Assembly (NCBI RefSeq): GCF_001545095.1
Contig: NZ_CP013213.1
Span: forward strand, 1,440,001 to 1,472,000
Reading direction: 5' to 3'
DNA: 32,000 nucleotides
Source of the DNA: Erysipelothrix larvae
Lineage (GTDB): Bacteria; Bacillota_I; Bacilli_A; Erysipelotrichales; Erysipelotrichaceae
Shown: piece after piece, positions 2,373 through 32,000 of the stretch
How the letters are laid out: each line of letters starts with the position of its first letter
How positions within the stretch are numbered: the stretch's first letter is position 1
The notes under the pieces: generated by a model
The model's input: the letters and a program-made list of their open reading frames with translations, nothing else
Told to the model about the DNA's origin: nothing
Database searches by the model: none
Made by a program: the position numbers and the translations under genes

Positions 2373-2394
2373 ACCGCTACCATCCTTTCTCTTT

Positions 2395-2619: not shown

Positions 2620-2631
2620 ATCGCACCTCCG

Positions 2632-3828: not shown

Positions 3829-3844
3829 AGTAAAATTCCTCCAT

Positions 3845-4576
3845 TTACATATATTTTTTGATAATTAAAAGTCGCTCCTTGAGTTCATCAATTGAGCGCC
3901 CTTGGGGTTTGGCAGATTCCTCCGCCTGAATTGGTTTATTCTTTTCTGCCATTTTGTTAAGTAGGTTAGTTGCCACTGCTTTTCTAGAAAACGCATAGGC
4001 AGAAAAATTGTGTTCGGATTGTTTCTCATCCTTTAGCACATCGTCTGCAAAGCCAAGTTCAATCGCTTTGTTGGCATTCATCCAGGTTTCAGCATCCATG
4101 AGATGGGATAGTTTGATGCGAGATACTCCAGTCTTAATCTCATAGGCGTTAATAATGCTTTCTTTCACCTCATCTAACATCTCGATCGCTCGTTTCATGT
4201 CTTCATGATCGCCCATCGTGATGGTTGCTGGGTTATGAATCATCATGAGCGCTGTAGGAGCCATCAGCACCTTTGTTCCTGCCATGGCAATGACAGAAGC
4301 GGCTGATGCTGCAATTCCATCAATCTTGACAGTTACCTCATCTGGGTAATCCATCAACATGGCATAAATCTGACTTGCAGCAATGCAATCTCCACCCGGT
4401 GAGTTAATCCATAGAGTGATGGGTCCTTTTCCGCTAAAGAGTTCATTTCTAAACATCTGCGGGGTCACATCATCATCAAACCAGCTTTCTTCAGCGATTG
4501 TTCCATAAAGCTCAAGAACTCGTTCTTCTTGTTCGCTTGCTTGGTTCTTCCATCGCCAAAACATCTTGTTCTTCAT
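3845..4576 (-). CDS. ClpP-like prohead (head maturation) protease
   Basis: Start re-assigned to ATG 4576 (MKNKMFWRWKNQ...) with AAGGAGG 9 nt upstream. S14 ClpP-type motifs are present: ITLWINSPGGDCIAASQIYAMLMDY and VIAMAGTKVLMAPTALMMIHNP. It overlaps the portal 3' end by 65 nt. Confidence 0.85.
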   Translation of the reverse strand: MKNKMFWRWKNQASEQEERVLELYGTIAEESWFDDDVTPQMFRNELFSGKGPITLWINSPGGDCIAASQIYAMLMDYPDEVTVKIDGIAASAASVIAMAGTKVLMAPTALMMIHNPATITMGDHEDMKRAIEMLDEVKESIINAYEIKTGVSRIKLSHLMDAETWMNANKAIELGFADDVLKDEKQSEHNFSAYAFSRKAVATNLLNKMAEKNKPIQAEESAKPQGRSIDELKERLLIIKKYM

Positions 4577-5840
4577 CCAAGTCTTCCTCCTTTCCATCCT
4601 CGTTTGTATTTGCGAATGCACCTGCCTTTGTAAGAGGGAGCATATTACCGTTGACAAGGTACATGTCACCGCCATCCTCTGAAGGGATACGGTCTAGGTT
4701 TTCAAGTTCCCTAATATCATTAGCACTCATCCAACCGTTCTGCCTTGCTGTGGCATACCCGCTCATGCGACTAACATAATCCCCTCTAAGCAGACCTTCC
4801 ACATTGAATCTAAAGAAGTATTTTTTCTTTTCTTCCGGTGTAAAAAGGGTGCGGGCTAGGGTTTGCTCCCAACGCACTACCCACGGGTCTAAGGTGTATT
4901 TCACAAACTCAAGGGATTGTTGCTCAATATTAGAAAAGCTCGACTTCTCAAGGTCGCCTACCATGTGAGGAGGGACTCTAAAAATCCGAGCAATTTCATT
5001 GATTTGAAACTTCCTTGTTTCAAGGAATTGTGCTTGTTCTGGTGAAATGGAAATCGGTGTATATTTCATTCCTTCTTCCAGCACGGCTATTTTATTGGAA
5101 TTGGCACTGCCACCAAATTGTGACTGCCAAGCCTCTCTGACTTTCCCAGGTTCTTTAATCGTTCCTGGATGTTCAAGCACACCACTTGGAGCAGCACCGT
5201 TAGCAAAGAACTTAGCTCCATATTCCTCTGTTGCAATGGCAAGACCAATCGCATTTTTAGCCATAGCAATTGGGGAGTAGCCAACAAGCCCATCAAACCC
5301 GAGTCCAGGAATATGAAGTACATCTGAGGTACTAAGTTTTACCGTCATACCCTTCGTACTGTTCACATCATCTGTACCTCTGGTGTATAAGTAATAGAGC
5401 TGCCCACTCTCATCTCGATGGACTGACATTCGATTTGGCATCAAGGGGTAGAGTCCTACAACTTCACCTTTTCCATTGCGAATAATCTGTGCATAACAAT
5501 TCCCCCATAACAAAAGATGAGTCATCATTGTTTCTCGAAACACAAAGGAACTCATCTCAGGATTTGGTTCATCATGCAAAAGTTTATACAAGGAATGGTC
5601 AATTGCTTTTTCCTTGCCACCATCATCTGTATAACGATAAAGGTGCAAAGGAAGCCCTGCTACTGCTTCAGCTAATATTCGAACACAAGAGTATACAGCC
5701 GTCATTTGAAGTGCCGACCGTTCGGTCACTGTTTTACCTGCTGTGGTTGATCCCATTAAAAATGTATAGTTGGAACTCACAGCTCTATCAGTAGGCTTAT
5801 CTCTTGCCTTAAAAATGGATGATAAAAATCCCAAAACCAA
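4512..5840 (-). CDS. portal protein, HK97 family
   Basis: 442 aa. The region VTERSALQMTAVYSCVRILAEAVAGLPLHLY is typical of HK97-type portals, and the gene lies between terL and the protease. The start is TTG 5840 or TTG 5834; the latter is 9 nt from GGAGG. Confidence 0.85.
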   Translation of the reverse strand: MVLGFLSSIFKARDKPTDRAVSSNYTFLMGSTTAGKTVTERSALQMTAVYSCVRILAEAVAGLPLHLYRYTDDGGKEKAIDHSLYKLLHDEPNPEMSSFVFRETMMTHLLLWGNCYAQIIRNGKGEVVGLYPLMPNRMSVHRDESGQLYYLYTRGTDDVNSTKGMTVKLSTSDVLHIPGLGFDGLVGYSPIAMAKNAIGLAIATEEYGAKFFANGAAPSGVLEHPGTIKEPGKVREAWQSQFGGSANSNKIAVLEEGMKYTPISISPEQAQFLETRKFQINEIARIFRVPPHMVGDLEKSSFSNIEQQSLEFVKYTLDPWVVRWEQTLARTLFTPEEKKKYFFRFNVEGLLRGDYVSRMSGYATARQNGWMSANDIRELENLDRIPSEDGGDMYLVNGNMLPLTKAGAFANTNEDGKEEDLDEEQDVLAMEEPSKRTRRTSS

Positions 5841-8730: not shown

Positions 8731-10467
8731 TTAATATTTCACCTCTAATTGTGTAAACCAAACAATGCCCGATAGGACAAAACATACATTGGGCAGGGCT
8801 ACTCCATTACCCCACATCTTATATTCTGCAGAATCTGAATGAGGGTTTTTAAGCCACTTCGTGATTTGCTTCAGTGTCTTAGGTTTGGTGTAAGCTCCCG
8901 TTGCTTTACGGAATGTTTCAAAAATGTCATACCAAATCCGAAGGTCATCCATCGTTGGGGTCTCTATGCCTAAATCACTGCACCACCAATCTGGAAAACC
9001 TTGCAGTCTTGCACACTCAGTTGGAGTTAGTCTTCTCACCGTATAATCTATCCCGTCATTATCATTGATAAGTGGCGGATCTTTGTAGTCGGTAGCAACT
9101 AGTGTATTGGCCAGTTCCTCTTTGGCATCTGTAAAAAACGATGCCTTACTGGATGAATAGGTAGGAGTTGCAACAGCACTGGGGCCTTGTGCCTTCAGTG
9201 TTGAATTAATTCCGTCTTCAGTAATTCCTAGGTTTCTAGCATAGTTTTGACCGCAGTTAAATGACTCTCTATCAATGGCATAGACCACAGCGTGTTTATC
9301 TACGGTATTTAGAGTAAAGCTAAGCTCTTCATTCACACCAGCACCTTGAGGTCCATTCTTATCTACCCGTCCTATCATAGAGCCTTGTAAACCATAAGAT
9401 TCCACCACTGCAATACCACCTTGATTGCTGTCCGGTGCATTACCTGACGTATCAATCGTTCTTGCCGTGTCACTCTCGTAAACATTGGAACGAGCATTTA
9501 CAGTTCCTTCCGAGGTAAATCGCACATCATAAGTCTTAGAATTCTCTACAACAAATGGTTGGTTGTTGCCGCCTGTTCCATAGGTCGCTGAAATCGTAGG
9601 AGCAACATCAATCGGCCCACTAAAACGAGTATCCTTTCCGTGATTATCAAAAACAGCTGTATCCATAACACAAGGTGGATGATTTGACTTAGCACGTAGG
9701 GTACAAGTAATATCCTCTGTCACATCCATACGATTGCCGCCCTGGTCATTTAAGCAGATTGTGCCTGCCTCTCCAGTGCTGTCTGCAATATAGCTGGTAG
9801 CACCTTGCCACGAGCGGATGCTCTCCTTAGAATACCCAGACAAGCCTTCTGACTTAAATAGTATTTCTCCGGCACCCCCACCTGCAAAATCTGCGACAAG
9901 GAAGATTCGTTTTCTTCGTTGGGGAACTCCCCAGTATTGAGCGTCAAGCACTCGCCAGGCAAGGGAAAAATGGTCTCCCACAATAGTTCCTGCCTGTTTC
10001 CACTTATCAATCTTAGGAACTGATAAGGTTTCATCCTTGATGTGGCAGATGCCTTCAAGGACACATCTGAAATCTTCTCCTTTGTTTGATGAGAAGGCTC
10101 CAGGGACGTTTTCCCAGACAATATATCTTGGTTTTTTGCCATCTGTAGCACACCTCATTTCTTTTACAATTCGGATGGCCTCATAAAAAAGACTTGAACG
10201 TTTACCATCCAAGCCATCACGCTTACCTGCTATGGATAAATCCTGACAAGGTGAGCCAAAAGTAATAATATCTACCGGTTCTATCTTACTGCCATCCATG
10301 GTTGAGATATCGCCGTAATGTTTTATAAAAGGCAGCCTTTTCGTTGTCACCCTAATAGGAAACGGTTCAATCTCCGATGCCCATACTGGGGTAATACCAG
10401 AAATTAAACCGCCTAAAGGAAAACCACCTGAACCATCAAAAAGACTGCCAAGGGTTAATTTATCCAT
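8731..10467 (-). CDS. DNA (cytosine-5)-methyltransferase with very long variable region
   Basis: C5-MTase motifs appear in canonical order: FDGSGGF (I), GSPCQDLS (IV), WENVPG (VI), QRRKRIF (VIII), RRLTPTECARLQGFP (IX-X region) and GNGVALP. Start re-assigned to ATG 10467 (MDKLTLGSLFDG) with GGAGG 6 nt upstream; it overlaps the upstream stop as ATGGATAA. Confidence 0.9.
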   Translation of the reverse strand: MDKLTLGSLFDGSGGFPLGGLISGITPVWASEIEPFPIRVTTKRLPFIKHYGDISTMDGSKIEPVDIITFGSPCQDLSIAGKRDGLDGKRSSLFYEAIRIVKEMRCATDGKKPRYIVWENVPGAFSSNKGEDFRCVLEGICHIKDETLSVPKIDKWKQAGTIVGDHFSLAWRVLDAQYWGVPQRRKRIFLVADFAGGGAGEILFKSEGLSGYSKESIRSWQGATSYIADSTGEAGTICLNDQGGNRMDVTEDITCTLRAKSNHPPCVMDTAVFDNHGKDTRFSGPIDVAPTISATYGTGGNNQPFVVENSKTYDVRFTSEGTVNARSNVYESDTARTIDTSGNAPDSNQGGIAVVESYGLQGSMIGRVDKNGPQGAGVNEELSFTLNTVDKHAVVYAIDRESFNCGQNYARNLGITEDGINSTLKAQGPSAVATPTYSSSKASFFTDAKEELANTLVATDYKDPPLINDNDGIDYTVRRLTPTECARLQGFPDWWCSDLGIETPTMDDLRIWYDIFETFRKATGAYTKPKTLKQITKWLKNPHSDSAEYKMWGNGVALPNVCFVLSGIVWFTQLEVKY

Positions 10468-11695
10468 CAGCAACCTCCAGTTCATCATAGTTGTAGCTCA
10501 GCCCATCCCTTTGGACGCTGACATTGGTAGAAGTTCCGACCTGTTCAATGTAGCGTTTGATAATGACATCGCAAAACTTCTCATCTAATTCTGCAGTGTA
10601 GCAAATACGCTCTGATTGTTCACAAGCAATTAAGGTGCTACCACTGCCGCCAAAAGGATCTAGCACAATGGTGTTAGTCATCGAGGAGTTCAAAACCGGA
10701 TAGGCGAGCAGAGGGATAGGTTTCATCGTAGGATGGTCTCCATTTCTCTTCGGCTTATCAAATTCCCAGATGGTGGTTTCTTTCCTGCCCGTATACCACT
10801 GATGCTTGCCTTTCTTTTTCCAGCCAAACAGCACAGGTTCGTGCTGCCATTGATAAGGAGAACGCCCCAGTACAAGGGAGTCCTTTTTCCAGATACAACA
10901 GCCAGACAAATAAAAACCGGCATCCGAGAAAGCTTTTCTAAAATTAAATCCTTCGGTGTCGGCATGAAATACATAGATGGAGGCATCGTCTGCCAGAACT
11001 TCTTCGATGTTGATAAAGGCATCTAAGAGGAACTGGTAGAAGGCATCATTTCCCATATGGTCATTTTTAATCTTTCCTGCAGTGCCTTCATAATTCACAT
11101 TGTAGGGAGGATCTGTTACACACAAGTTTGCCTTCTTTTTATTCATCAGCACATCATAGGTTTCTTCTTTGGTGGAGTCACCACAGATAAGCCTGTGTCT
11201 GCCAAGCGTCCAGATGTCACCAAGCTTGCTGATGGCAGGCTTTTTTAGTTCTGTCTCCACATCAAAGTCATCATCGTGGATACCATCTTTCAATGTGTCC
11301 TTAAATAAGTCATCCAGTTCTTTAGGGTCAAATCCAGTTAGGGAAACATCAAAATCTACACCTTGTAAATCTGAAATTAAAAGGGCCAGTTTATCCTTGT
11401 CCCAAGCACCGCTGATTTTATTGAGTGCGATGTTAAGTGCTTTTTCTTTCTCTTCGTCCATCTCGATGATGACACACTCGACTTCTGTGATACCCATATC
11501 CATGAGAACCTTCAGTCTTTGATGCCCACCGACAACATGGCCGGTCACCTTATTCCAGATAACCGGCTCTACATAACCAAATTGTTCAATGGATCGTTTT
11601 AATTTATCGTATTCTGCATCACCAGGTTTTAAATCTTTACGAGGATTGTATGTTGCAGGGATGAGGTCTTTTGTGTTCTTCTTTTCAATCAACAT
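10460..11695 (-). CDS. ParB-like nuclease domain fused to N6-adenine/N4-cytosine DNA methyltransferase (beta class)
   Basis: The N-terminus is ParB/Srx-like (YNPRKDLKPGDAEYDKLKRSIEQFGYVEPVIWNK...GGHQRLKVL). The catalytic DPPYN motif (CVTDPPYNVNYEG) comes before the SAM-binding LDPFGGSGSTLIA. The ATG overlaps the metK stop. Confidence 0.85.
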   Translation of the reverse strand: MLIEKKNTKDLIPATYNPRKDLKPGDAEYDKLKRSIEQFGYVEPVIWNKVTGHVVGGHQRLKVLMDMGITEVECVIIEMDEEKEKALNIALNKISGAWDKDKLALLISDLQGVDFDVSLTGFDPKELDDLFKDTLKDGIHDDDFDVETELKKPAISKLGDIWTLGRHRLICGDSTKEETYDVLMNKKKANLCVTDPPYNVNYEGTAGKIKNDHMGNDAFYQFLLDAFINIEEVLADDASIYVFHADTEGFNFRKAFSDAGFYLSGCCIWKKDSLVLGRSPYQWQHEPVLFGWKKKGKHQWYTGRKETTIWEFDKPKRNGDHPTMKPIPLLAYPVLNSSMTNTIVLDPFGGSGSTLIACEQSERICYTAELDEKFCDVIIKRYIEQVGTSTNVSVQRDGLSYNYDELEVADG

Positions 11696-21133: not shown

Positions 21134-21303
21134 CTCCTACATCTAATGAATTTCAAAGATAATCCTTTGATACTTCTATTATCACTGATTATTAATTCTT
21201 AAAATATGGATACAGTAGGGATGGAATATGGAAAGAGTATGGGAATTAAAAAAGAACAAATCGAGTAGGAGATGAGAGATTAATTCCCTCACCGACCTCT
21301 CAC

Positions 21304-21337
21304 ACCACCGTACGTACGGTTCCGTATACGGCGGTTC
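21304..21337 (-). ncRNA. group II intron domain V
   Basis: The minus strand reads GAACCGCCGUAUACGGAACCGUACGUACGGUGGU. This gives a 9-bp basal helix (ACCGCCGUA/UACGGUGGU), a 2-nt CG bulge, a 4-bp upper helix, and CGC in the catalytic-triad position. It starts 4 nt after the RT stop codon. Confidence 0.85.
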
Positions 21338-21341
21338 AGTT

Positions 21342-22628
21342 TTACATGACATGTTTTGTCTGATAATATGAACTTGCGGATAGTAAGCCAAATCTTGCTA
21401 ATCGCTCATTTGTTATGGTAGTGGTTAAAACCCAAGAGTAGGCTATTCTGGCATATGATTTGCTAGAATAGCTGTTTTTGTATGCTTCATTTGTCGACAT
21501 TCCGAGCTTGCGTAACTGCTTTCGTCGGTTTTTAGGTGTTTTCCATAGTTTCCAAATGCACATCCGCAAACGTACTCGTAGATTACTATCAATTTTATCT
21601 AGTACCATTTTCATTCTGGCTATCCTAAAGTAATTGACCCATCCACGAATATTCTCATTGATTTTCTGAACACGGTACTTTGTGTTCACTCCCCAACTAC
21701 GTTTAGTGAGATACTTGATTTTCTTACGAAAATTATTGATGGCAATCTCATGTGGCTTTGGAAGATACTTTCTTTCCTTCCTTCCCCAGAAGAATCCGAA
21801 GCCTAGAAACTTAAACTCGGGATTATTTGGTCTTACAATCTTAGACTTCTCGGCATTTACAATTAGCCCTAGCTTATCCTCAATAAATCGCACAATATTA
21901 CGCATGACTCGTCTTGCAGACATCTCACTTTTGACAAGTATGATACAATCATCGGCATATCTTACAAAACGTAATCGACGTGACTCGAGTTCTTTATCTA
22001 GCTCATTGAGCATAATGTTACTGAGTAACGGGGATAAGTTCCCACCTTGAGGTGTACCCATCGTTGATTCAATATCACCTTCATCTGTACGAATCCCACT
22101 CACCAAATATTTTCTGATAAGCGATATGACGTCGCCATCTTCTATTGTTCGAGCCACAAGATTCATAAGGCGGTCATGATGAACGGTATCAAAGAATCGC
22201 TCCAAATCAATATCCACTACCCATTGATAGCCTTCATTCATATATTCTAACGCCTGCTGAATGGCCATTTCAGCTCGTTTACGAGGGCGAAAACCATAGC
22301 TGTATTGGCTAAACTCAGCGTCGAATATAGGCGTGATGACTTGAGATATTGCTTGTTGGATTACACGGTCGACGACCGTGGGTATTCCCAATAAACGTAC
22401 ACCGCCATTAGGTTTTGGTATTTCCACTCTCAGAACTGGTTGGGGGTTGTATTGTCGTTGAAGTATTTGTTTTCTCACCTCTAGGCCATTTCGTACAAAA
22501 TAAGCTTTCACCTCATCGACAGTCATACCATCGACGCCAGGTTTTCCTTTATTTCTCCGCACTTGTCCAATTGCCAGTTCAATATTTTCGTGACTTAATA
22601 CCTCCTTCATCAAGTTCTTTGTATACAT
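21342..22628 (-). CDS. group II intron reverse transcriptase/maturase (no endonuclease domain)
   Basis: Start re-assigned to ATG 22628 (MYTKNLMKEVLSHENIELAIGQVRRNKGKPGVDGMTVDE...). RT blocks are present: RVEIPKPNGGVRLLGIPTVVDRVIQQA, TPQGGNLSPLLSNIMLNELD and the YADD box (FVRYADDCIILV). An X/maturase region follows (IRGWVNYFRIA). The ORF ends without a D/En (HNH) domain. Confidence 0.9.
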   Translation of the reverse strand: MYTKNLMKEVLSHENIELAIGQVRRNKGKPGVDGMTVDEVKAYFVRNGLEVRKQILQRQYNPQPVLRVEIPKPNGGVRLLGIPTVVDRVIQQAISQVITPIFDAEFSQYSYGFRPRKRAEMAIQQALEYMNEGYQWVVDIDLERFFDTVHHDRLMNLVARTIEDGDVISLIRKYLVSGIRTDEGDIESTMGTPQGGNLSPLLSNIMLNELDKELESRRLRFVRYADDCIILVKSEMSARRVMRNIVRFIEDKLGLIVNAEKSKIVRPNNPEFKFLGFGFFWGRKERKYLPKPHEIAINNFRKKIKYLTKRSWGVNTKYRVQKINENIRGWVNYFRIARMKMVLDKIDSNLRVRLRMCIWKLWKTPKNRRKQLRKLGMSTNEAYKNSYSSKSYARIAYSWVLTTTITNERLARFGLLSASSYYQTKHVM

Positions 22629-23120
22629 GTCTGTTAGTCCTTTCTGTTTCGTGAAGTCGGTATCTACTTTTACGCTCAATGCCAGTAGTCCTTTGCCTGC
22701 TTCCAATTGAGAATTCTTAACAATAAAACTGTTCAGCCCTTCACTCCTTCTACCTTTCGATAGACGTCTTCATTACTATGGCTTCGGCTGACTTCTCACG
22801 TTCCAGTCCTATATCACTATAAGAGTTTGGTGCAGAGACGTGAGACCTCCCCAGTTAAGGTACAAACTCTTCCTCTCTATCTATCCGCCACATTTACACC
22901 ACTTGATTATGTCAGTAACTATTGGGCTTCAACTTCTTTTGCAGCCTTACCCTCAAGTGTCGCCTTTTATGTGATTTCTGTTCGTCGGACCAGAGATTTG
23001 CCTTAGACTTCCTTCAGATTCCACCTCGCGATGGACACCCTTGTCTTTAGCTATACGTTTTCCGTTACTGGGACACGTTAGGGACTTTAACCCTTAAGAG
23101 TTTGCCCATGCTGGGCAAAC

Positions 23121-23150
23121 AAAAATAGCCCCCTGCATTTCTGCAGGAGG
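23121..23150 (-). terminator. intrinsic terminator of the helicase gene and intron homing site
   Basis: The minus strand reads CCUCCUGCA-GAAA-UGCAGGGGG followed by CUAUUUUU. It starts 18 nt after the helicase stop. The intron's first base (23120) immediately follows the T-tract. Confidence 0.75.
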
Positions 23151-23168
23151 CATAATTGATGCTTAGAA

Positions 23169-25784
23169 CTAATCTATAAATAATTCAGGCATATTAAATT
23201 GTATATCGTGTGCTTCAGTTTCTACACCGACATTACCACATGTCAGTATCGAACGGTGAATTTGTATTTCACCATCAACTTCTATTAAATATTTATTCTG
23301 ATTAGTTGGTTCTTCTATATATTTTGAAGATTCTCGTGAAAAACCACTTTGTTGAAGAAAAATAGTCAAAGGATTTGTTGTACCGTATTCCACATATTCA
23401 TACCAATCATTTTGGAAATGATCTACTTGATGTACATCCTTATATTCCAGGGAAAATTTCCTAAAATAATTTGAGATACTAAATAAAAGGACATTTTCAA
23501 TTACACCAAGTGTTTCAGAAATAATATAGTTTTTGTGGGATTTGGAGTTCTTATTATAAACATCAGCCATTTTCATATTGCCAACCCATACACCTGAATT
23601 TGGATTTTTCTCTTTATATTTAAGTGCATGGTATATAATCTGACTAAGGCCATTGCCCCTAATCCATCTTAATAGGATAACTGCATACCACCTGACAACA
23701 GAGTCCTCTCTATAGGTACCTGATTTTCCTATCGTACGTTTTTCATAAATATCCCATTTGAAAACCTTTCGAAGTTTCATGAGGAAATCGACTAATTCTT
23801 CAAAATCAACCTCATCATTTTCTCCTGTTAATTTTGGATATTCTTGTCCACTTTCAACAAGCTCTCTTAAATTGATAATTTGGTCGTATGAAAAATTGAT
23901 ATCGTCACTTGTCTTTTCGACAGGAAAGTTTTCTTTTATTTTATATTCACTTTCTTCATCTAATAGCGATGAAAAAGCTTCTCGTATAGGTGTAATATTA
24001 TCCTCTGCAATATCTTTGGTAAAAATCATTGCAAATTTACGTAGAGCATCAAAGTCCTTTTCTGTAGCTGCTTCACGAACCTTAGTCAATTCCATATCAC
24101 CACGAGCTAAATCATCAACTACCAAGCTTAAATATTTTTTGTTATCTATTAAGTTAATGGAAATCTCTTGTTTTGGAACATCGTTTTGAAGTAAATCAAT
24201 ATAATTCTGAGTTTTAAGTCTGTCCTCCATGCGAATCAAGAACACATTTCCATATAAATTATATTTTATGCGCCCAACACGTCCTACTAAGTTTCTAAAT
24301 TCCACCTCATCCATATTAGAATTTCCGTTTCTATAGCTTGTAATAAATAAATTGTCTGCTGGTAGATTTACTCCTTCAACAAGTGTGCTAGTACAGAATA
24401 TTGTTCTTAGAATACCATCAACAAAACTCTTCTCTATTCTTAATCGGATGTTGGTAGGGAGGTATCCGACATGATATGCTACGCCTCGTTGTATTAAATC
24501 AGCAAGATAACAATCATTATGGACTTCATTACGGATATCATTAGCTAATGAGATAAGTTTCTCATCATCTTTAATAGGAAGTTTGCTTGCATATTGTACA
24601 GCATAATCGACAACTTTTTGTCTCGAATTACAATAGATAATGTTTTGTTGTGTGGATCCAACTCGATTAACAATATCACTCAGCTCATCTTCTTGTGGTA
24701 TTTTTCCTATAGATGATAATGATTTTGAATAATCATTATAAAAATAAGCTTGACCTTCGCACAAATCTAGAAAATATTTAAACTGGCATACCGGTGTATA
24801 TTTTGATGCTAGTTTTTTCACTTCATCTATATTGATTTTTGGTATCAAACTGAGGTATACCTCAGGGTTTGGAATATTTGGAGACGCAAAAATTACTGTT
24901 GGCATTTCCTTCATCTTAGATAGCTGTGCAATCACTTTATAGTAATATGTACTCCGCCCTCCTCTATCAGATATTTTGTGAGCCTCATCTATAAATAGGA
25001 AATCTATTTTTATCTGTGGCTTGCCTATCATCATATGCAGTAGACGTTCAGGAGTCATAACAAAAATGAAGCTGTGTTCTTGTTGTAATACAATATCTCC
25101 AGATGCACTGACAACACGATAATTTGTCTCTTTTAGCTTTTCTTGAAGACTTCCAATTATTTCACTTCTGACTTCGTTTATCAAAGCTTTAGTGGGTACA
25201 AGAATAGCGAAATTCTTGGTTGAACCATTTTCTATTTGTTGTTTAATATATGTTTGTACGACAAATGATTTTCCCATAGAAGTAGGTCCAGAATAGCTAA
25301 AGTACTTGTAATTTAATCCATCATACACATCTTTCTGATCATGAAAAAAATAACTGCCCTCTTCACCTGGTATTTGTAACCTAGATTTATCATACTCAAA
25401 ATACAAACCATCAAACACATTAGAAGTTTGAAATCCCTCAATATAAGTGGATTTCAAGCCACGATAATTACCAACTGTCGAAAGAACAGAACCGAGGTAA
25501 TACTTTACTGCTAAATCCTCTGGATAAACAATACTTAACAAAATCACGAGTTCCTGACCCCACAAGCGATGTTCATCACGTTTATCTGGAAGGGTGGATT
25601 TTGCTAACAAATCTGCAAATCTTAATGCATCTTTTATATTTATTTCTTTTTGCTGTTTTCTTAACTTAAACAGATTGATTGAATAATCATAAAGCAATGA
25701 TTCGTATATTTCTTTCAAATAATCATTCTTGTCAATATCTCTATACAGTGCTTCGGCAAGAGTCTGATTTCTTGGTGTTTGCAT
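23169..25784 (-). CDS. hamB: Ski2-like DEAH-box SF2 helicase, HamB-like (Hachiman-type effector partner)
   Basis: Motifs present: motif I SGPTSMGKS (25266-25289), motif II FIDEAHK (DEAH at 24978-24989), GVAYHVGYLP, TSTLVEGVNLP, and motif VI NLVGRVGRI. A roughly 350-aa C-terminal region shows no motif. Start re-assigned to ATG 25784, 4 nt after the upstream TAG and preceded by GGGAGGTAGGAGG. Confidence 0.65.
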   Translation of the reverse strand: MQTPRNQTLAEALYRDIDKNDYLKEIYESLLYDYSINLFKLRKQQKEINIKDALRFADLLAKSTLPDKRDEHRLWGQELVILLSIVYPEDLAVKYYLGSVLSTVGNYRGLKSTYIEGFQTSNVFDGLYFEYDKSRLQIPGEEGSYFFHDQKDVYDGLNYKYFSYSGPTSMGKSFVVQTYIKQQIENGSTKNFAILVPTKALINEVRSEIIGSLQEKLKETNYRVVSASGDIVLQQEHSFIFVMTPERLLHMMIGKPQIKIDFLFIDEAHKISDRGGRSTYYYKVIAQLSKMKEMPTVIFASPNIPNPEVYLSLIPKINIDEVKKLASKYTPVCQFKYFLDLCEGQAYFYNDYSKSLSSIGKIPQEDELSDIVNRVGSTQQNIIYCNSRQKVVDYAVQYASKLPIKDDEKLISLANDIRNEVHNDCYLADLIQRGVAYHVGYLPTNIRLRIEKSFVDGILRTIFCTSTLVEGVNLPADNLFITSYRNGNSNMDEVEFRNLVGRVGRIKYNLYGNVFLIRMEDRLKTQNYIDLLQNDVPKQEISINLIDNKKYLSLVVDDLARGDMELTKVREAATEKDFDALRKFAMIFTKDIAEDNITPIREAFSSLLDEESEYKIKENFPVEKTSDDINFSYDQIINLRELVESGQEYPKLTGENDEVDFEELVDFLMKLRKVFKWDIYEKRTIGKSGTYREDSVVRWYAVILLRWIRGNGLSQIIYHALKYKEKNPNSGVWVGNMKMADVYNKNSKSHKNYIISETLGVIENVLLFSISNYFRKFSLEYKDVHQVDHFQNDWYEYVEYGTTNPLTIFLQQSGFSRESSKYIEEPTNQNKYLIEVDGEIQIHRSILTCGNVGVETEAHDIQFNMPELFID

Positions 25785-25788
25785 CCTC

Positions 25789-27246
25789 CTACCTCCCATC
25801 AAGCATTTCCGATATGATACTGCTCTTCTCTAATGGAGCATCATTAAAGGGCACAACGTAAAAATAAAAATTATACCCACTCATACCGTTATCAAAAATT
25901 TTCTGTTCAATATACGGCTTTAGAGCAGAAATATCTCTCTTCATCTGTTCTTTGACTGCAATACGATACTTGTTATTATTAGTTTCTGTGTAGCCTAACG
26001 AAAGTGTATAACCAAGGAAAACACCAAAGGCCATATCTGGTTTTGCTACACTAGCTTTATTAGGTATCAGAAGATTAACCATATAATTTGTTGTATCAGA
26101 ATCATAGATACTTCCATGCGTGGTGTTCTCCACCATCTTTAATTCAGTGTCACTGTTACTTTCAATCTCAATAATCTTATCGAATGCACGGTCGATCGCT
26201 ATGGCTAAATCTCCATGAACATCTGATGCTCCAAAGACAAGCTGATGGAATAGCTGGCCATTATCATTTATAGCAAGTAGGTGAACCCCATCACTTTTAC
26301 TTTCGATGCTTCTACCCAGATCATTTATTTCGATTTTGCTCATTATTTTAGGTGCATTTAGCTCTTGTTCCATAAATACATAAAGGAGCATTTCTCCTAG
26401 GACCGTTTCTGCAGAGGCTCCATAAGCTTGCATAAATTTAACTAAAGCTTGTGAACCTATAGCATAACTTTTCTTTGAAGTAATAAGTCTGTTTGTTTTC
26501 GCTCTAGAAAATACATAGTTTCCTATGTTATCCACAAGATATTCCTTTAGCGCCCTAAACTTAAACTTGCAATTATTAGCGTCAACACCGTATATATGTA
26601 CATTGGATGGATTAGATAAACCAAATATATTTATAGAGGACACTTTTTCAAATACCCTCTCAAAAGTCGGGTCATGTAAAGTCTTATGTAAAGGGATTTG
26701 AGATTCAGCTTTTGCACTTTCAAAATAAATCTGCTCATCAGATAGGTCAAAAGACTCTACATAACTTTTATCAATTTCTTTTATTGCTTTTTTACATTCT
26801 TGGTTTTTAACTTCAATTATCGCAAAGTAAAATACGGATGCCAAAAGAGCAGATAAGCTAAATGTAGAATTATTTATGATGTTATTTTTTTCATAGCCCT
26901 TAATATATCCAATCACAGTTTGATCTTGAATATTTGAATCCTCACGCAAAATTTCTTTAATAGCACGAACTACCGATTCACGCTTACTATCTTTTATTAA
27001 TTTTACTACTTTATTTTCAAATACTCTCTCTGCATCTTCAAATGATGTATCTCTAGCAGCGGCAATCACATCTGGTGGTACATTATTCCGGCCACTTTTG
27101 AGATGTCCAGGCAAGGAACTATCAAAAGAATTTGTTGTTTGAGAATAAGAAGAAAAGATGGCATCGCACAACAAATCATTCGTAACTTTTTGGTTACGAG
27201 CTTGATACAATATGTGCATAAGTGTACCAAAACATAATCGTTTCAT
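25789..27246 (-). CDS. hamA: HamA-like (DUF1837-type) protein with a roughly 225-aa N-terminal extension
   Basis: Start re-assigned to ATG 27246 (MKRLCFGTLMHIL...) with GGAGG 7 nt upstream; the track start at 27324 has no SD. The C-terminal half, ...VLGEMLLYVFMEQELNAPKIMSKIEINDLGRSIESKSDGVHLLAIND...QLVFGASDVHGDLAIAIDRAFDKI (26209-26400), matches my recollection of the DUF1837 core. It sits immediately upstream of a coupled helicase gene. Confidence 0.55.
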   Translation of the reverse strand: MKRLCFGTLMHILYQARNQKVTNDLLCDAIFSSYSQTTNSFDSSLPGHLKSGRNNVPPDVIAAARDTSFEDAERVFENKVVKLIKDSKRESVVRAIKEILREDSNIQDQTVIGYIKGYEKNNIINNSTFSLSALLASVFYFAIIEVKNQECKKAIKEIDKSYVESFDLSDEQIYFESAKAESQIPLHKTLHDPTFERVFEKVSSINIFGLSNPSNVHIYGVDANNCKFKFRALKEYLVDNIGNYVFSRAKTNRLITSKKSYAIGSQALVKFMQAYGASAETVLGEMLLYVFMEQELNAPKIMSKIEINDLGRSIESKSDGVHLLAINDNGQLFHQLVFGASDVHGDLAIAIDRAFDKIIEIESNSDTELKMVENTTHGSIYDSDTTNYMVNLLIPNKASVAKPDMAFGVFLGYTLSLGYTETNNNKYRIAVKEQMKRDISALKPYIEQKIFDNGMSGYNFYFYVVPFNDAPLEKSSIISEMLDGR

Positions 27247-27397
27247 TGCGATGCCTCCTATTATTCTATTACAGCAATTTTTATATAATCGATCGACTCC
27301 ATCACCATGACTATGCTTAATCATTAGACTCAGAGTATCTACAGTCTAGCTTGGAAGGGTTCTCTTCTATATAAAATGATAGCTCCTTGTATATTTC

Positions 27398-27403
27398 ATT
27401 ATA
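27398..27403 (-). promoter_or_regulatory. candidate -10 box for the hamA-like/hamB-like operon
   Basis: A perfect TATAAT on the minus strand lies in an AT-rich tract (CTCTATTTTATAATGAAAT) about 150 nt upstream of ATG 27246. There is no convincing -35. Confidence 0.25.
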
Positions 27404-27457
27404 AAATAGAGCTTTTACGACATCCCTAAAAGAGTTTATTTCCCCATTCCTCCAACT

Positions 27458-27619
27458 CTAAAGTTCCATTTCATTCAGTATCTCCTTAAGCTTTTTAAGT
27501 TCTTCTACGCTTAAGGTTACACCTTTGCCCATTTTCTCCTGTTCAGGTGCCCAATCTCTGATGTCATATTTAGGTTCCCTGTCATTCCAGCTGATTAAAT
27601 TCAGCTCAATAAATTGGTC
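27458..27619 (-). pseudogene. 5'-truncated remnant of a PC4/YdbC-like ssDNA-binding protein gene
   Basis: The frame opens right after a TAA (27620-22) with no start codon: DQFIELNLISWNDREPKYDIRDWAPEQEKMGKGVTLSVEELKKLKEILNEMEL*. This matches the C-terminal two-thirds of bacterial YdbC/PC4-like proteins as I recall them (...ELNLISWN...PKYDIRDW...MGKGVTL...). The first 20-25 codons or so are missing, and it starts 14 nt after the hsdS stop. Confidence 0.55.
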
Positions 27620-27635
27620 TTAGAGGTAATTATTC

Positions 27636-29063
27636 TTACTCCTTCACAAGCTGTTTTGTTTGTGGTAACATTTCTTCTATCTTCTCCACAATACGTTTTT
27701 GTTCTCCAAGTGGGGGGAGAGGTAGAATAGTATTTGCTATATCTCTCATAACCCAATTCTTATTACCAACACCTCTAGTATTTTCTCTGGCTTGAATTTG
27801 TACAACAGGTGCTTTAATTACGTACATGAAATACTTATTGTATATCAACTCAGTATTAAATTTTAGAAGTGCAACGCTAACGAATAGGCTAAACTCTTTA
27901 TCAGTATCCACTATGACAGGAATTCCAGTAGTTCCAACTTTAGTTAGAAGTATATCATCCCGTTCCGGATCACATCTTTTGTAAAGAGACTCGTGTTCTT
28001 CTTGTGAGATAAATTTTGTATTAGAAAAATCCATCTTCCCACTACTAATGTCTTTGACAGATATAAATGGAACACCTGTAGCAGTGTATTTAGGGGTACT
28101 ATGAGTCCCATCAGTTAATTTATATAGGAGTTCTCCTAACCTAACCCACTTCCAATTCTCCGGAATATCAAATGGAATCTCATCTTCTGTGATCTCCGGA
28201 AGAACCTTAGTCTTTTTAATCTTCCCTTCCTTAATCAGCTTTTTCTTTTCTTCTTGAATTTGCTTATAAAGGTCTTCTGCTGTTCCATCTTCTTCTCGCT
28301 GCTCTACCAGCTTGCCTTGGATGGCATATTGTAAAATAGATTTTTGCATATCTTCTGGGAACTTTTTATTCAGTTCCTCCACCTCAGTATAGGCTTTATC
28401 GTATTGTTCTACATAAGGCATTAGCTCTTCGATCTTTGCTACGATGCGCTTTTGTTCTTCTAGTGGGGGGAGGGGGATTAGCTTCGGCTCAATCATTGGA
28501 ACTGTCAACTGCTTTATACTTGTTCCCACGCCTTTTTCAAGTAATGCTGTTAGAACATTTTGAACATACTTATTATCTAATTGATCAGAAATGTTTATTA
28601 CGAGTAACCTTACAACAGGTGTAAATGGTTCAGTCCTCAGACACGAAAATCCAATTGTTCCTCTTCCAGAAACCGTAATACACGATTCTTCTATTGTAGC
28701 TTCTTTCGTATATCCTATTATGCCATCATTTTGTATACCATTGGCTATTACTGGAACTGTATGCGTTTCTGTTTTGCTTTTCAAAAAATCTTTTGGTTTA
28801 TCCCCGCCAGCTTTTATAAATAGTGATAAGTCAATTAGTCTAACCCATTCCCAACTCTCTGGAATATCAAATGGAATCTCATCTTCCTTGATTTCTGGCA
28901 GTTTTTTCTGCTTTTTAATTTTACCTTCTTTAAAAAGCTGTTTCCTCTCAGCTTGAATCTTCTCAATTAATTCTCCTGCAGTACCTTCTTCTTCCCGCTG
29001 TTCTACAAGTTTCCCCTGTATGGCAAGTTGAAGGATACTGTTCTTTAAGTCCTGTGCATTCAT
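27636..29063 (-). CDS. hsdS: type I restriction-modification specificity subunit
   Basis: 475 aa with two target-recognition domains. Each is preceded by a conserved helix (SILQLAIQGKLVEQREEEGTA... / SILQYAIQGKLVEQREEDGTA...) and followed by PLPPL(E/G)EQKRIV.KIEE. The ATG directly abuts the hsdM stop. Confidence 0.9.
   Translation of the reverse strand: MNAQDLKNSILQLAIQGKLVEQREEEGTAGELIEKIQAERKQLFKEGKIKKQKKLPEIKEDEIPFDIPESWEWVRLIDLSLFIKAGGDKPKDFLKSKTETHTVPVIANGIQNDGIIGYTKEATIEESCITVSGRGTIGFSCLRTEPFTPVVRLLVINISDQLDNKYVQNVLTALLEKGVGTSIKQLTVPMIEPKLIPLPPLEEQKRIVAKIEELMPYVEQYDKAYTEVEELNKKFPEDMQKSILQYAIQGKLVEQREEDGTAEDLYKQIQEEKKKLIKEGKIKKTKVLPEITEDEIPFDIPENWKWVRLGELLYKLTDGTHSTPKYTATGVPFISVKDISSGKMDFSNTKFISQEEHESLYKRCDPERDDILLTKVGTTGIPVIVDTDKEFSLFVSVALLKFNTELIYNKYFMYVIKAPVVQIQARENTRGVGNKNWVMRDIANTILPLPPLGEQKRIVEKIEEMLPQTKQLVKE
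28137..28349 (-). repeat. hsdS internal direct repeat, copy 2 (partner at 28836..29045)
   Basis: It encodes MQKSILQYAIQGKLVEQREEDGTAEDLYKQIQEEKKKLIKEGKIKKTKVLPEITEDEIPFDIPENWKWVRL. Copy 1 encodes KNSILQLAIQGKLVEQREEEGTAGELIEKIQAERKQLFKEGKIKKQKKLPEIKEDEIPFDIPESWEWVRL. The DNA is clearly similar by eye (for example ggaatatcaaatggaatctcatcttc in both). Confidence 0.8.
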
Positions 29064-30533
29064 TTAATTACCTCCAAACATAGAAGTAATCTGTTCTAAT
29101 ACATGATCGATTTCTGCATTAAGAGATGCCCGCTTCTCCTGGTATTTTTGAATCAAATCCATAGGTTCAAGAATCACTTCTTCTTCATGAGGGAATCCAC
29201 AAAGATCAATATTATAGCTTCTTTCTACAATTTCATCAATTGTGTATCTCTTGGCTTTTGGAAAACCATCCACTTCGATCTCTTCTCTGTTCTCCCACCA
29301 GCTAAGGGCATCGTTAAAATGTTCCAGCTTCATCGGTCTGGTTTTGGAGAAATTCTTGTAGCCTTCTGGCATATCCACACGATAGAACCAGGTTTCCTTG
29401 GTTGGTTCTGTATTATCAAAGAACAGGATATTAGTTCTTATAGATGTATAAGGCGCAAAAACGCTGTGTGGCATTCTTACAACTGTGTGAAGATTAAATT
29501 CACTGAACAGCTTTTTCTTGATATTAAACTTTCCGTTATCTGTACCAAAAAGGAACCCGTCTGGAATGATTACAGCACATCTACCATTTTTCTTAAGCCT
29601 GTACATAATCACATTCATAAATAAATCTGCTGTTTCAGAACTTCTAAGTTCTGTTGGGAAGTTAGACTTCACGCTGTCTTTCTCACTTCCACCATAAGGA
29701 GGATTCATTAAGATCACATCGAAAGGTTCCATCTTCCGCATATCTTTATAGTCCATCTCCAGTGCATTACCATGGAGGATATTTGGATCATCGATATCAT
29801 GAATCAACATATTGGTCACACAAAGCATATGAGGAAGTGCCTTCTTCTCAATACCATAAACGGATTTATTGTAGATTTCTCTATTCTCCAATGAGTTACC
29901 TACCTGTTTATCTAATTCATTGAGGGCAGAGGTCAAGAAGCCACCGGTACCACAGGCGAAGTCTCCGATTCTATCGCCTAGGACAGGCTTTACTACTTTA
30001 ACCATAAAGTCTGTCACTGCCCTTGGTGTGTAGAACTCACCGGCATTACCAGCACTTTGAAGGTCTTTTAGGAAAGACTCATAAATGGCACCAAACTCAT
30101 GGCGCTCCTTGTATTCGGTAAAGTCAATCTCATCAATGATATTGACCACTTGCCTTAGAAGCACACCATCTTTCTGATAGTTGTTAGCATCTTCAAAGGC
30201 ATAGCGAACAATGACCTGGCTCATTGGTGTGTTTTCATCAATTTCAAGATTCTTTAAAGTTGGAAATAATGTATTGTTGACAAAGTCCAGGAGGGCATCC
30301 CCTGTGAGTGCTTCTCCATCTTTTCTATCCACCGCCCAATCACGCCATTTAAGTCCTTCTGGAAGGATAGACTTGTAATTATCATTTAACAGCTCCCATG
30401 TTTCTTCTTTTGCATCATATATTTTTAAGAACAGAATCCACACGATCTGCTCAATTCTTTGGGCATCACCATTAACGCCCGAGTCATTTCGCATGACATC
30501 CTGGATTCTTTTCACAAAGTTACTAATCGCCAT
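29064..30533 (-). CDS. hsdM: type I restriction-modification N6-adenine DNA methyltransferase subunit
   Basis: 489 aa. It has the N-terminal HsdM_N-type region (RIEQIVWILFLKIYD), FYTPRAV, motif I GDFACGTGGF and motif IV ILMNPPYGG. Confidence 0.9.
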   Translation of the reverse strand: MAISNFVKRIQDVMRNDSGVNGDAQRIEQIVWILFLKIYDAKEETWELLNDNYKSILPEGLKWRDWAVDRKDGEALTGDALLDFVNNTLFPTLKNLEIDENTPMSQVIVRYAFEDANNYQKDGVLLRQVVNIIDEIDFTEYKERHEFGAIYESFLKDLQSAGNAGEFYTPRAVTDFMVKVVKPVLGDRIGDFACGTGGFLTSALNELDKQVGNSLENREIYNKSVYGIEKKALPHMLCVTNMLIHDIDDPNILHGNALEMDYKDMRKMEPFDVILMNPPYGGSEKDSVKSNFPTELRSSETADLFMNVIMYRLKKNGRCAVIIPDGFLFGTDNGKFNIKKKLFSEFNLHTVVRMPHSVFAPYTSIRTNILFFDNTEPTKETWFYRVDMPEGYKNFSKTRPMKLEHFNDALSWWENREEIEVDGFPKAKRYTIDEIVERSYNIDLCGFPHEEEVILEPMDLIQKYQEKRASLNAEIDHVLEQITSMFGGN

Positions 30534-30555
30534 TTTATCTACCTGCCATCTCTAT

Positions 30556-32000
30556 TTATGCGTAATATATTTCGTTTTCTAGCTCCTGTACTGCTTTCAA
30601 ATAAGCTTCCTTACCACCAAAGGCTTTGACAATCTTCATCGGGCTGCCAATTTTCTGGAACTCTTTCAGTTGAAGTACTTTCGTATCTTCAATCTCCTTG
30701 ATGCCATCATTGGCATACTTGTCAAGTAGGGCTTCAATAACCTCTTTGGCTACATCTGAATACTTGTAAAGGTAATGCCTTTTCTTCACGTTCTCTGCCC
30801 GTTCCTTCTTGGTCAGGGGTGCCTTATCATAGGCTATGTGGCAGATGAGATCAAAGTCATCCAGCTCCGTTTTTCCCAATTCTTGTCTTACCGCTTCAAG
30901 AAGCACACCGTCATCCTGGAGTTCATCAATGATGGCTTGCTTCCTTTCAGCTTCTGTCCAGGTGCTCAGGAAGTCATCCAATCTTGAATACTGCTCAAGG
31001 ATGTTTTTCTTTGTGTAGTCAATAAGACTTTCAGTAATGAGCTTGCCATCCTTATCTACATACTGGACTCTTTCTGATAGAACTTTTACCAGAACATCGC
31101 CGACATAATATTTTCTTGGTTTGTCTTCGCCTTCATCATCAAAGGGTGGAGTATCATCGGTTACATATTCGCCATCATCTTCTTTAACACCATCAGTACC
31201 TGTATCTTCTCCAGTACCTTCTTCACCTTCCTCTGTAGGTGTTTCAGGCTCATCCACTGGGTCATCACCCCCAAGGTCAATGACCACTTCTGGCTTACCA
31301 TCAAAGGCAGGATCGGCAAAAAGTCTACTGGCATTTCTAAAGTCCATAATGGTAAAGTAGGTCTTGCCGTAATCTTCAAGAAGGCGTGTTCCTCGACCAA
31401 TAATCTGTTTGAACTCAGTCATGCTGTTGATGTTGTTCTCCAGTACAATGAGTTTACACATCTTGGCATCCACACCTGTGGTCATGAGTTTGCTGGTCAC
31501 TGCTATCACCGGATAAGGGCTTTCTTCATCAATGAAATTTTCCAGCTGCGCTTTACCGATATCATTGTCACCGGTAATCCTCATGATATAACGGTCATTT
31601 TCGGCATAAAGATCCTTATTTTCATTGATCAGTGATTGACGCATCCTCTCTGCGTGTTCAATATCCACACAAAAAACAATGGTCTTACTGAACCGATCAG
31701 TCTTTTTCAGAAACTCAGATATTTTAGATGCTACCACCCGAGTTCTATCGTCAATGACAATATTTCTATCAAAGTCTTTGACGTTGTACTCTCGATCTTC
31801 TATCTCATAGCCATGCTTATCCACTTTGCCCGCTTCTGGGCGATAGCCTTCAAGGTCTTTATCCAGACCGATACGGATCACTTTATAAGGTGCTAGGAAC
31901 CCATCATCGATACCCTGCTTTAAGGAGTATTCATATATCGGCTCTCCAAAATAAGTGAAGCTAGAGGCTTCCTTTGTTTCAATTGGAGTAGCTGTACAGC
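30556..32000 (-). CDS. hsdR: type I restriction enzyme R subunit, C-terminal part (gene continues beyond window end)
   Basis: The track's M at 31881 is an internal GTG. The frame stays open to 31998 (...TPIETKEASSFTYFGEPIYEYSLKQGIDDGFLAPYKVIRIGLDKDL...). It has helicase motif VI QIIGRGTRL, an acidic linker, and a C-terminal domain resembling EcoEI_R_C (DDFDLICHIAYDKAPLTKKERAENVKK...FGGKEAYLKAVQELENEIY). Confidence 0.85.
   Translation of the reverse strand, partial: CTATPIETKEASSFTYFGEPIYEYSLKQGIDDGFLAPYKVIRIGLDKDLEGYRPEAGKVDKHGYEIEDREYNVKDFDRNIVIDDRTRVVASKISEFLKKTDRFSKTIVFCVDIEHAERMRQSLINENKDLYAENDRYIMRITGDNDIGKAQLENFIDEESPYPVIAVTSKLMTTGVDAKMCKLIVLENNINSMTEFKQIIGRGTRLLEDYGKTYFTIMDFRNASRLFADPAFDGKPEVVIDLGGDDPVDEPETPTEEGEEGTGEDTGTDGVKEDDGEYVTDDTPPFDDEGEDKPRKYYVGDVLVKVLSERVQYVDKDGKLITESLIDYTKKNILEQYSRLDDFLSTWTEAERKQAIIDELQDDGVLLEAVRQELGKTELDDFDLICHIAYDKAPLTKKERAENVKKRHYLYKYSDVAKEVIEALLDKYANDGIKEIEDTKVLQLKEFQKIGSPMKIVKAFGGKEAYLKAVQELENEIYYA

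Follow-up and report, generated by a model that had tools for sequence, protein, structure and literature searches.

A Hachiman locus with a predicted effector-fused, nuclease-dead HamA in a Javan630-like prophage of Erysipelothrix larvae

Hachiman systems pair HamA, a protein with a DUF1837 domain, with the helicase HamB. In the canonical type I-A representatives (Escherichia coli ECOR31, 8VX9, PMC12278908; Bacillus thuringiensis; Arthrobacter), HamA is a protein of 250-330 amino acids (aa) with a D...E-x-K motif and is itself the DNase. HamB is a Ski2-like enzyme that senses 3' single-stranded DNA (ssDNA) and DNA damage (PMC12278908). The D...E-x-K residues of canonical HamA are required for defense in E. 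coli ECOR31, E. coli DEC14B and Streptococcus thermophilus (PMC12278908, PMC11914072, PMC13064477). In types I-B, I-C and I-D, HamA instead has an extra N-terminal domain, namely, a Cap4 nuclease, a peptidase and an unidentified domain "X," respectively, and no (D/E)xK (Cui et al. 2025, PMC11914072). The DUF1837 domain of such N-terminally extended HamAs has been proposed to be a scaffold, and in AbpA, the HamA of the Cap4-HamAB system AbpAB, Cap4 is the active nuclease (PMC11914072). The HamA of trypsin-HamAB-MBL (MBL, metallo-β-lactamase) likewise has no canonical nuclease residues, and DNA-triggered ATP hydrolysis releases its fused domain, according to the preprint that is the source of structure 9WH1 (bioRxiv 10.1101/2025.09.03.673762). 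Here we compare with these systems a hamA-hamB pair found in a 32,000-nucleotide (nt) stretch of the genome of Erysipelothrix larvae (contig NZ_CP013213.1, positions 1,440,001 to 1,472,000; hereafter the window, to whose numbering the coordinates below refer unless another locus is named).

Taking all the lines of evidence together, we consider it likely that this pair is an effector-fused, nuclease-dead Hachiman system, carried as a 4.1-kb cassette in a hotspot of a Javan630-like prophage, and that the N-terminal domain of its HamA would be released by HamB to abort infection. As a Hachiman locus it is nothing new, and standard tools would call it. With just two genes, it nevertheless offers a clean and compact case of the Hachiman class that is understood least, one that joins an apparently dead nuclease domain to an uncharacterized fused domain.

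The hamA-hamB pair and its assignment to Hachiman

The two genes lie on the minus strand. hamA (25789-27246, with its ATG at 27246 and its stop codon TAG at 25791-25789) codes for a protein of 485 aa, which comprises an N-terminal all-α domain, a linker and a C-terminal DUF1837/HamA domain. hamB (23169-25784) codes for a Ski2/Hel308-like superfamily 2 helicase of 871 aa, which its matches in PADLOC, Pfam and the PDB point to as the sensor and ATPase of Hachiman. Residues 233-467 of HamA match Pfam PF08878 (HamA/DUF1837) with an E value of 4.6e-36 and a score of 125 bits (the cut-off being 25), in agreement with the first-pass annotation, which had likened the C-terminal half of the upstream protein to DUF1837 and the pair to the Hachiman architecture. 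The latter proposal is borne out by both Pfam and full-length PADLOC profile matches: 14 PADLOC HamA models match the protein, the best of which, the HamA1 model PDLC00164, aligns over positions 1-488 of its 490 with residues 1-485 at 871 bits, and residues 4-870 of HamB align with positions 3-865 of the 866 in the HamB1 model PDLC00190 at 1131.8 bits. HamB further matches the Pfam families DEAD, ResIII and Helicase_C. The helicase motifs reported earlier are present exactly where they had been placed, with motif I (Walker A; GPTSMGKS, residues 166-173) at 25266-25289 and motif II (DEAH, residues 266-269) at 24978-24989. The segments GVAYHVGYLP (24456-24485) and TSTLVEGVNLP (24360-24392) and motif VI (GRVGR, residues 501-505, 24270-24284), all likewise on the minus strand, are also there.

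Among solved structures, the nearest to HamB is chain 9wh1_B (E = 9.8e-72, residues 17-834), followed by AbpB (8zue_B), Hel308, Brr2 and Ski2. The nearest solved HamA chain, 9wh1_A, is similar in the C-terminal domain only (phmmer to its residues 265-513, E = 1.8e-9). When the HamA family profile was run against PDB sequences, it recovered 9wh1_A at 8e-16 and reached neither 8vx9_A nor 8zue_A. At the level of structure, an AlphaFold2 model of HamA with a mean predicted local distance difference test score (pLDDT) of 86 retrieved 8vxy_A, 8zue_A and 8vx9_A in Foldseek searches with a probability of 1.00 and E values of 2.6e-3 to 6.2e-3. More than 400 relatives of HamA were recovered. Nearly all of the 120 listed extend over the full length, with 481-511 aa, and one of them carries the NCBI name "HamA C-terminal domain-containing protein." In all related loci examined, hamA is directly upstream of hamB. 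With PF08878 in HamA, a Ski2/Hel308-like HamB that has the N-terminal helical region of its family besides motifs I, II and VI, and the order hamA-hamB in one operon, the assignment of the pair to Hachiman, taken by itself, is near certain. By analogy to the solved complexes 8VX9, 8ZUE and 9WH1, the two proteins would form a HamA-HamB heterodimer. The upstream protein is indeed atypical, as had been remarked, but the accompanying idea of an undescribed subtype has to be given up: the long-HamA subfamily, with its more than 400 members, is already represented in PADLOC 2.0.0, where the 490-position model spans the whole protein, and in the published classification (Cui et al. 2025, PMC11914072).

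Both window proteins have their closest solved relatives in trypsin-HamAB-MBL (9WH1/9WHK/9WHU; bioRxiv 10.1101/2025.09.03.673762). The two systems have in common a HamA of about 500 aa with an extra N-terminal domain, a DUF1837 domain without catalytic residues and a HamB of about 850-870 aa. Unlike this type I-C system, however, the N-terminal domain in the window is all-α and has no Pfam peptidase match, the alignment with 9wh1_A covers the C-terminal domain only, and no MBL-fold gene is found in the window or in related loci. With Cap4-HamAB, i.e., AbpAB from the CP4-57 prophage of E. coli K-12 (type I-B, 8ZUE, PMC11914072), the pair shares a two-gene, prophage-borne organization, in which an N-terminal effector, putative in the window, precedes an apparently inactive DUF1837 scaffold, and the tight coupling of hamA to hamB, the AbpAB genes overlapping by 4 bp and the window genes being 4 nt apart. 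In contrast, the AbpAB effector is a Cap4-like PD-(D/E)xK nuclease (D45/Q58/K60), whereas the N-terminal domain in the window is helical with no nuclease signature, and AbpB, at 729 aa, matches the window HamB at an E value of just 1.8e-18. The domain lacks a β-sheet core, has no Pfam or PADLOC Cap4 match and does not align with residues 1-252 of K-12 AbpA, which sets it apart from type I-B. Canonical type I-A Hachiman shares with the window the gene order, the DUF1837 fold and the Ski2-like HamB, but the window HamA has A-S-D in place of the E-x-K motif and 176 additional residues plus a linker at its N terminus. An extra N-terminal domain combined with a DUF1837 domain devoid of (D/E)xK is the hallmark of the effector-fused class that comprises types I-B, I-C and I-D, and the window HamA has both.

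The signals around the pair are those of a compact operon. We read the junction directly as GATGGGAGGTAGGAGGATG, in which the TAG of hamA, GAGG and the ATG of hamB follow each other on the same strand with a gap of 4 nt; the tight coupling of the two genes described in the first-pass annotation is exactly what the letters give. The GAGG (25785-25788, minus strand), part of GGGAGGTAGGAGG, is the ribosome-binding site (RBS) between the hamA stop codon and the hamB ATG and is consistent with translational coupling, and an AGGAGG at 27254-27259 precedes the ATG of hamA. The operon has a single terminator, located after hamB. Scanning and folding place this intrinsic terminator at 23118-23151 (minus strand), with a G+C-rich stem of 10 bp, a 4-nt loop and a T tract; its stem, at 23151-23128, begins 17 nt 3' of the hamB stop codon. 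The terminator that had been ascribed to the pair is thus well supported, with a folding energy of -24.8 kcal/mol and a z score of -4.15, and none of 200 shuffled sequences was equally stable. The upstream region had likewise been credited to the pair as its own, and as a promoter this is not established: positions 22500-27800 contain 18 promoter-like sites against 22.3 expected from shuffles, i.e., no enrichment, and the DNA common to the cassette copies extends no more than 17 nt beyond the hamA ATG on the upstream side. The AT richness first noted from a small hand sample turns out to be representative, as the mean G+C count per 60-nt line is 20.0 in hamAB (n = 67) versus 25.5 in the phage backbone (n = 344). 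Overall, the G+C content is 33.3% in hamAB, 42.5% in the phage backbone and 36.8-42.5% in the hsd genes, and that of third codon positions is 0.24-0.27 in hamAB and 0.36-0.42 elsewhere.

Three alternative gene models were discarded. A longer hamA open reading frame (ORF) from 27324 conflicts with the homologues, which start at MKRLCFG, and with the DNA similarity to other copies, which begins at 27263. A longer hamB start at 25802 was rejected on the basis of homologue N termini and the RBS position, and a plus-strand ORF of 143 aa within hamB (23758-24189) is antisense to a conserved gene and regarded as spurious.

The degenerate DUF1837 nuclease site

Pfam, BLASTP and phmmer locate the DUF1837 domain, with its PD-(D/E)xK-like fold, to residues ~200-485 of HamA (25792-26649, minus strand). 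Canonical HamAs for comparison were taken from plasmids of B. thuringiensis, E. coli and Arthrobacter, in which the motif reads ETK, TEAK and GESK, respectively. In MAFFT alignments, the short E. coli and B. thuringiensis proteins aligned poorly and the Arthrobacter protein cleanly, the latter alignment being confirmed by BLASTP of the window C-terminal domain against this 332-aa plasmid HamA (E = 4e-24). Here, the window segment QLVFGASDVHGD stands opposite the Arthrobacter segment QLIFGESKMYGD, with FGASD versus FGESK at the site itself. Residues G339-A340-S341-D342 (26221-26232, minus strand) occupy the place of the canonical G-E-x-K nuclease motif, with both the E and the K replaced. Within the HamA subfamily of the window, 65 members all carry G339, A340 and S341, and position 342 is mostly D or N. 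Accordingly, the description "nuclease-like" given earlier to the upstream protein is right for its fold and wrong for its catalytic residues, as E-x-K is missing. Of the D...(D/E)-x-K signature that typifies type I-A, D319 is present and A340-S341-D342 stands where E-x-K would be. Judging from these alignments, the E-x-K motif has evidently been lost without a conserved replacement in that strand. By analogy to the effector-fused systems, we infer that the DUF1837 domain is a catalytically inactive scaffold that would dock onto HamB.

Certain features of the domain weigh against this interpretation: D319 (26290-26292) and the helix glutamate E285 are kept, along with several other invariant charged residues. 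They raise the alternative that the domain is still a DNase in the canonical style, acting through a rearranged active site made up, for example, of E285, D319 and another base, with the N-terminal domain being only regulatory or DNA binding. In keeping with such a site, D319, E285, E293, K300, K304 and E306 show little or no variation within the family, and purifying selection is stronger on the C-terminal domain (omega of 0.04-0.09) than on the N-terminal one. There are also very weak matches of the N-terminal domain to repressor or helix-turn-helix (HTH) proteins (FevR, E = 1e-3, far below the cut-off; PADLOC HTH_IX, E = 0.1; CI repressors in BFVD, E of ~2). Nonetheless, K300, K304 and E306 also occur in the canonical Arthrobacter HamA, which makes them shared features rather than replacements, and with both E and K replaced, the variation of position 342 leaves no compensating residue in the strand. 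Moreover, mutations of E-x-K abolish defense in the three canonical HamAs tested (PMC12278908, PMC11914072, PMC13064477), and both of the characterized HamAs without E-x-K depend on their fused domain. A purely regulatory domain would also be unexpected at the effector position of STAND (signal transduction ATPases with numerous domains), ABC-three-component (ABC-3C) and ThsA-like proteins, where relatives of the N-terminal domain are found (see below). We therefore regard a still-active DUF1837 DNase as unlikely and favor the inactive scaffold.

The N-terminal domain of HamA as a candidate effector

The candidate effector corresponds to residues 1-176 of HamA (26719-27246, minus strand), which AlphaFold2 models as an all-α domain. 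The model of this segment is a nine-helix bundle (pLDDT of 96.3; predicted template modeling score of 0.92). The domain has no Pfam match, and FevR, far below the cut-off, is the sole NCBIfam family recovered. Foldseek searches with it gave nothing significant in the PDB (best E value of 1.9, TM score of 0.16) or in BFVD, and a word-indexed search with its profile returned just unnamed short proteins and fragments with no functional name. In a HMMER search of 1.84 billion representative sequences with residues 1-215, 335 proteins were retrieved at E values of ≤1e-3. We scanned with Pfam the 84 of the 150 listed matches that have at least 300 aa, and these listed representatives include 43 HamA, 17 ABC-3C CTD11, 5 CTD6, 2 NACHT and 1 ThsA_Macro proteins. 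Ten representatives scanned singly include an NB-ARC+TPR protein, a NACHT+SNaCT14 protein and two further NACHT-like NTPases, and in every individually scanned protein, the domain is N terminal.

The module of ~170 residues is thus shared, at 25-33% identity, with CTD11 and CTD6 effectors of ABC-3C/Lamassu-type systems and with STAND (NACHT/NB-ARC) NTPases, with C5, K120 and N148 invariant in this comparison and G7 and D103 almost so, but the chassis differ: there it is an ABC ATPase with MC7 or a STAND NTPase, and none of those components is found in the window. A Lamassu or ABC-3C assignment would call for an LmuB/ABC-type ATPase and a middle component beside the effector. Neither stands next to hamA, and the N-terminal domain is all that is shared. 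One of the CTD11 fusions is encoded within an operon of the form HTH-N-domain+CTD11-MC7-DUF2326 ATPase, which, going by the Pfam family names, can be read as an ABC-3C (Lamassu-type) arrangement. In the metagenome contigs L030-L032, this unit (at ~2300-5700) comprises HTH_26, a 444-aa N-domain+CTD11 protein, MC7 and the DUF2326 ATPase, and adjoins RepA_N and an integrase; the HamA-type N-terminal domain is found there on another mobile element and in a different immune chassis.

The N terminus is the place of the effector domain in LmuA, Avs/bNACHT and ThsA. Because the same domain heads ABC-3C/Lamassu-type, STAND and ThsA-Macro proteins, it is probably, by analogy, the effector of this Hachiman system as well. 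C5 (27232-27234), G7, D103 (26938-26940), K120 (26887-26889) and N148 (26803-26805; minus strand) are conserved across these architectures, each at 87-94%, and are situated at helix ends in the model. The placement of C5, D103, K120 and N148 at predicted helix ends would fit an enzyme pocket better than a module with a structural role alone. Counting against an effector role are that it is drawn from the position of the domain in other architectures, with no recognized catalytic fold, and that the literature searched contains no experimentally tested Hachiman bearing this domain. Two specific activities were considered and rejected. Membrane insertion was suggested by a helix at residues 131-145 with a Kyte-Doolittle value of 1.83 in the window protein, but across the family the median is 1.4, and a value of 1.6 is attained in no more than 19 of 79 members. 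In the case of a phospholipase D-like HxK motif (H48-K50), H48 is not conserved beyond the HamA subfamily.

The absence of a recognizable catalytic fold is equally compatible with the domain being an adaptor or activator for a separately encoded host or phage protein, comparable to trypsin-HamA, which activates an MBL nuclease, or to the effector-associated domains (EADs) of STAND proteins. The closeness of HamB and DUF1837 to the trypsin-HamAB complex, which acts through a third protein, points in the same direction. The genomic evidence runs counter to it: neither the window nor any of the loci L002-L004, L007 and L016-L026 has a conserved third gene beside hamAB, and a search of all other ORFs of the window found the N-terminal domain in none. 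Adaptors are typically also found fused to enzymatic effectors, but none of the 84 listed representatives fuses the domain to a recognized one, the sole candidate being a lone Phage_integrase match, and no Pfam EAD or Death-like family was matched. We consider such an adaptor quite improbable and retain the domain as the candidate effector.

Going beyond this, we tentatively propose, with rather less than even confidence, that the domain represents an undescribed all-α immune effector family with a new activity and target, interchangeable in at least four chassis, i.e., the Hachiman helicase, the ABC-3C/Lamassu ATPase, STAND NTPases and ThsA-like Macro proteins. If its activity were worked out in this helicase-controlled system, a module that recurs in several immune systems would gain an annotation, and the two-gene organization offers a convenient experimental entry point to this uncharacterized, widely shared N-terminal module.

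A mechanism can be conceived from the solved Cap4-HamAB (AbpAB) and trypsin-HamAB complexes and the work on ECOR31. The DUF1837 domain would dock onto HamB, which, in its ATP-bound state, would keep the fused N-terminal domain inactive during DNA surveillance. Upon loading on 3' single-stranded or damaged DNA arising from infection, HamB would hydrolyze ATP and thereby free the N-terminal domain, which might then damage a cellular target and bring about the death or arrest of the infected cell, i.e., abortive infection.

A mobile cassette in a prophage defense hotspot

Positions 1-20600 of the window are 93.4% identical to Streptococcus phage Javan630 (MK448997), a prophage of Streptococcus uberis, and encode terminase, portal and capsid proteins, methyltransferases, a VapE primase and an SNF2 helicase. 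The same backbone recurs in Listeria genomes at 92-98% identity, and elements in Listeria and an Erysipelotrichaceae genome are 91-93% identical to it; this spread across Streptococcus, Listeria and Erysipelotrichaceae is unusually wide for a phage family. At the equivalent end of Javan630 (L034, 1-3282), there is a complete Lamassu operon, LmuA-LmuC-LmuB. In Listeria, the order is hsdM-hsdS-hsdR, PC4, two small genes and hamA-hamB, followed by the same phage genes. An exact look-up of the window HamA retrieved no record, and loci were compared by way of its relatives P0001 (96% identical) and P0005 (77% identical).

DNA identity delimits an exchangeable hamAB cassette of 4.1 kb that extends from the RBS to the terminator (23121-27263, minus strand). 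The metagenome contigs L016 and L018 share hamAB with the window at 98.3% DNA identity over exactly 27263-23121, and their upstream flank, a BpuSI-like type IIS restriction-modification (R-M) system, is unrelated to that of the window. Conversely, the cassette in the Listeria loci is just 80% identical to that of the window despite shared flanks at 92-98%. Because the near-identical cassette is found beside an unrelated flank and the shared flanks enclose a divergent cassette, the 4.1-kb segment has evidently been exchanged as a unit. A more distant copy of hamAB, 50% identical, is found in an Oscillospiraceae metagenome-assembled genome behind a C5-methylase, AAA_5 and LlaJI system.

Both ORFs are intact, and purifying selection acts on hamB and on each half of hamA, with omega values of 0.16-0.24 for the N-terminal domain and 0.04-0.09 for the C-terminal domain; hamB gives 0.056 when compared with the Listeria copy. 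When hamA is compared with the Listeria copy (L022, 10001-11461), synonymous divergence is 0.49 in the N-terminal domain and >4, i.e., saturated, in the C-terminal domain. As the two halves differ so strongly in this respect, the comparison suggests that hamA is a mosaic, whose N-terminal domain may have been exchanged separately from the scaffold.

In the first-pass annotation, the pair was flanked by an R-M operon on one side and a prophage on the other. The comparisons redraw this picture, in that the R-M operon and hamAB evidently occupy, together, one variable defense hotspot of the Javan630-like prophage. The locus documents how R-M types, Hachiman alleles and Lamassu are swapped as cassettes within a single hotspot, the phage backbone being common to Streptococcus, Listeria and Erysipelotrichaceae. 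A role of the pair in phage defense is supported by this context, in which R-M lies upstream and the corresponding site of Javan630 holds Lamassu. One could instead see in it a phage or host helicase for DNA repair or replication with an accessory protein, or a decaying remnant, given that the pair adjoins a phage replication module with the VapE primase and the SNF2 helicase and that HamB resembles Hel308-type repair helicases. However, the best matches by far are the defense-specific HamA1 and HamB1 profiles over their full length, with NCBIfam Hel308 far below its cut-off. Further, exchange of the cassette among phage backbones is not tied to the replication genes, Lamassu takes the same site in Javan630, and two intact ORFs under purifying selection are not what a remnant would present. 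A role outside immunity is, on this evidence, highly improbable.

An R-M system is directly upstream of hamAB in every related locus with annotated upstream genes (window 27636-31881, L002, L003, L004, L007, L016-L018 and L022-L025). These systems are of four unrelated kinds: type I in the order R-M-S, type I in the order M-S-R, BpuSI-like type IIS with two methylases, and C5-methylase/AAA_5/LlaJI. The adjacency could be mere clustering in a defense island, or it could reflect functional coupling. As hamAB is directly downstream of R-M in all four contexts, HamB may be triggered by free DNA ends that originate from restriction.

In the window, hamAB is flanked upstream by hsdS and a PC4 remnant and downstream by a group II intron. 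The remnant (27458-27607, minus strand) is a 5'-truncated PC4/YdbC ssDNA-binding gene, reduced to its last 49 codons and without a start. The full gene of 73 aa is present between hsdR and hamA in the Listeria loci L022-L025, and the remnant evidently marks the recombination breakpoint at which the region received a different type I R-M operon. A complete group II intron (21261-23120, minus strand), with a reverse transcriptase/maturase ORF at 21342-22706 and matches to three Rfam domains (D1-D4 and domain V/VI), is inserted directly after the hamB terminator, between hamB and that gene. Bacterial introns of class C typically insert at such a position, immediately behind a terminator. The otherwise near-identical L016, L018 and L022 have no insertion at this site. 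In the window, a second hairpin, at ~23101-23121, is located between the hamB terminator and the intron.

Two minor observations concern genes around the hotspot. In Listeria, Anaerotalea and Erysipelotrichaceae loci, the region between PC4 and hamA is occupied by ORFs that are absent from the window (L003, 8955-9944; L022, 8955-9944), in the form of either a single 329-aa frame or a split version of 109 and 219 aa with a faint match to RAMA. Between the genes for the small and large terminase subunits of the window prophage, there are two phage DNA methyltransferase genes (8731-10488 and 10460-11695, minus strand), one with a ParB-like N-terminal part. These methyltransferases may be antirestriction functions of a phage that itself carries R-M and Hachiman.

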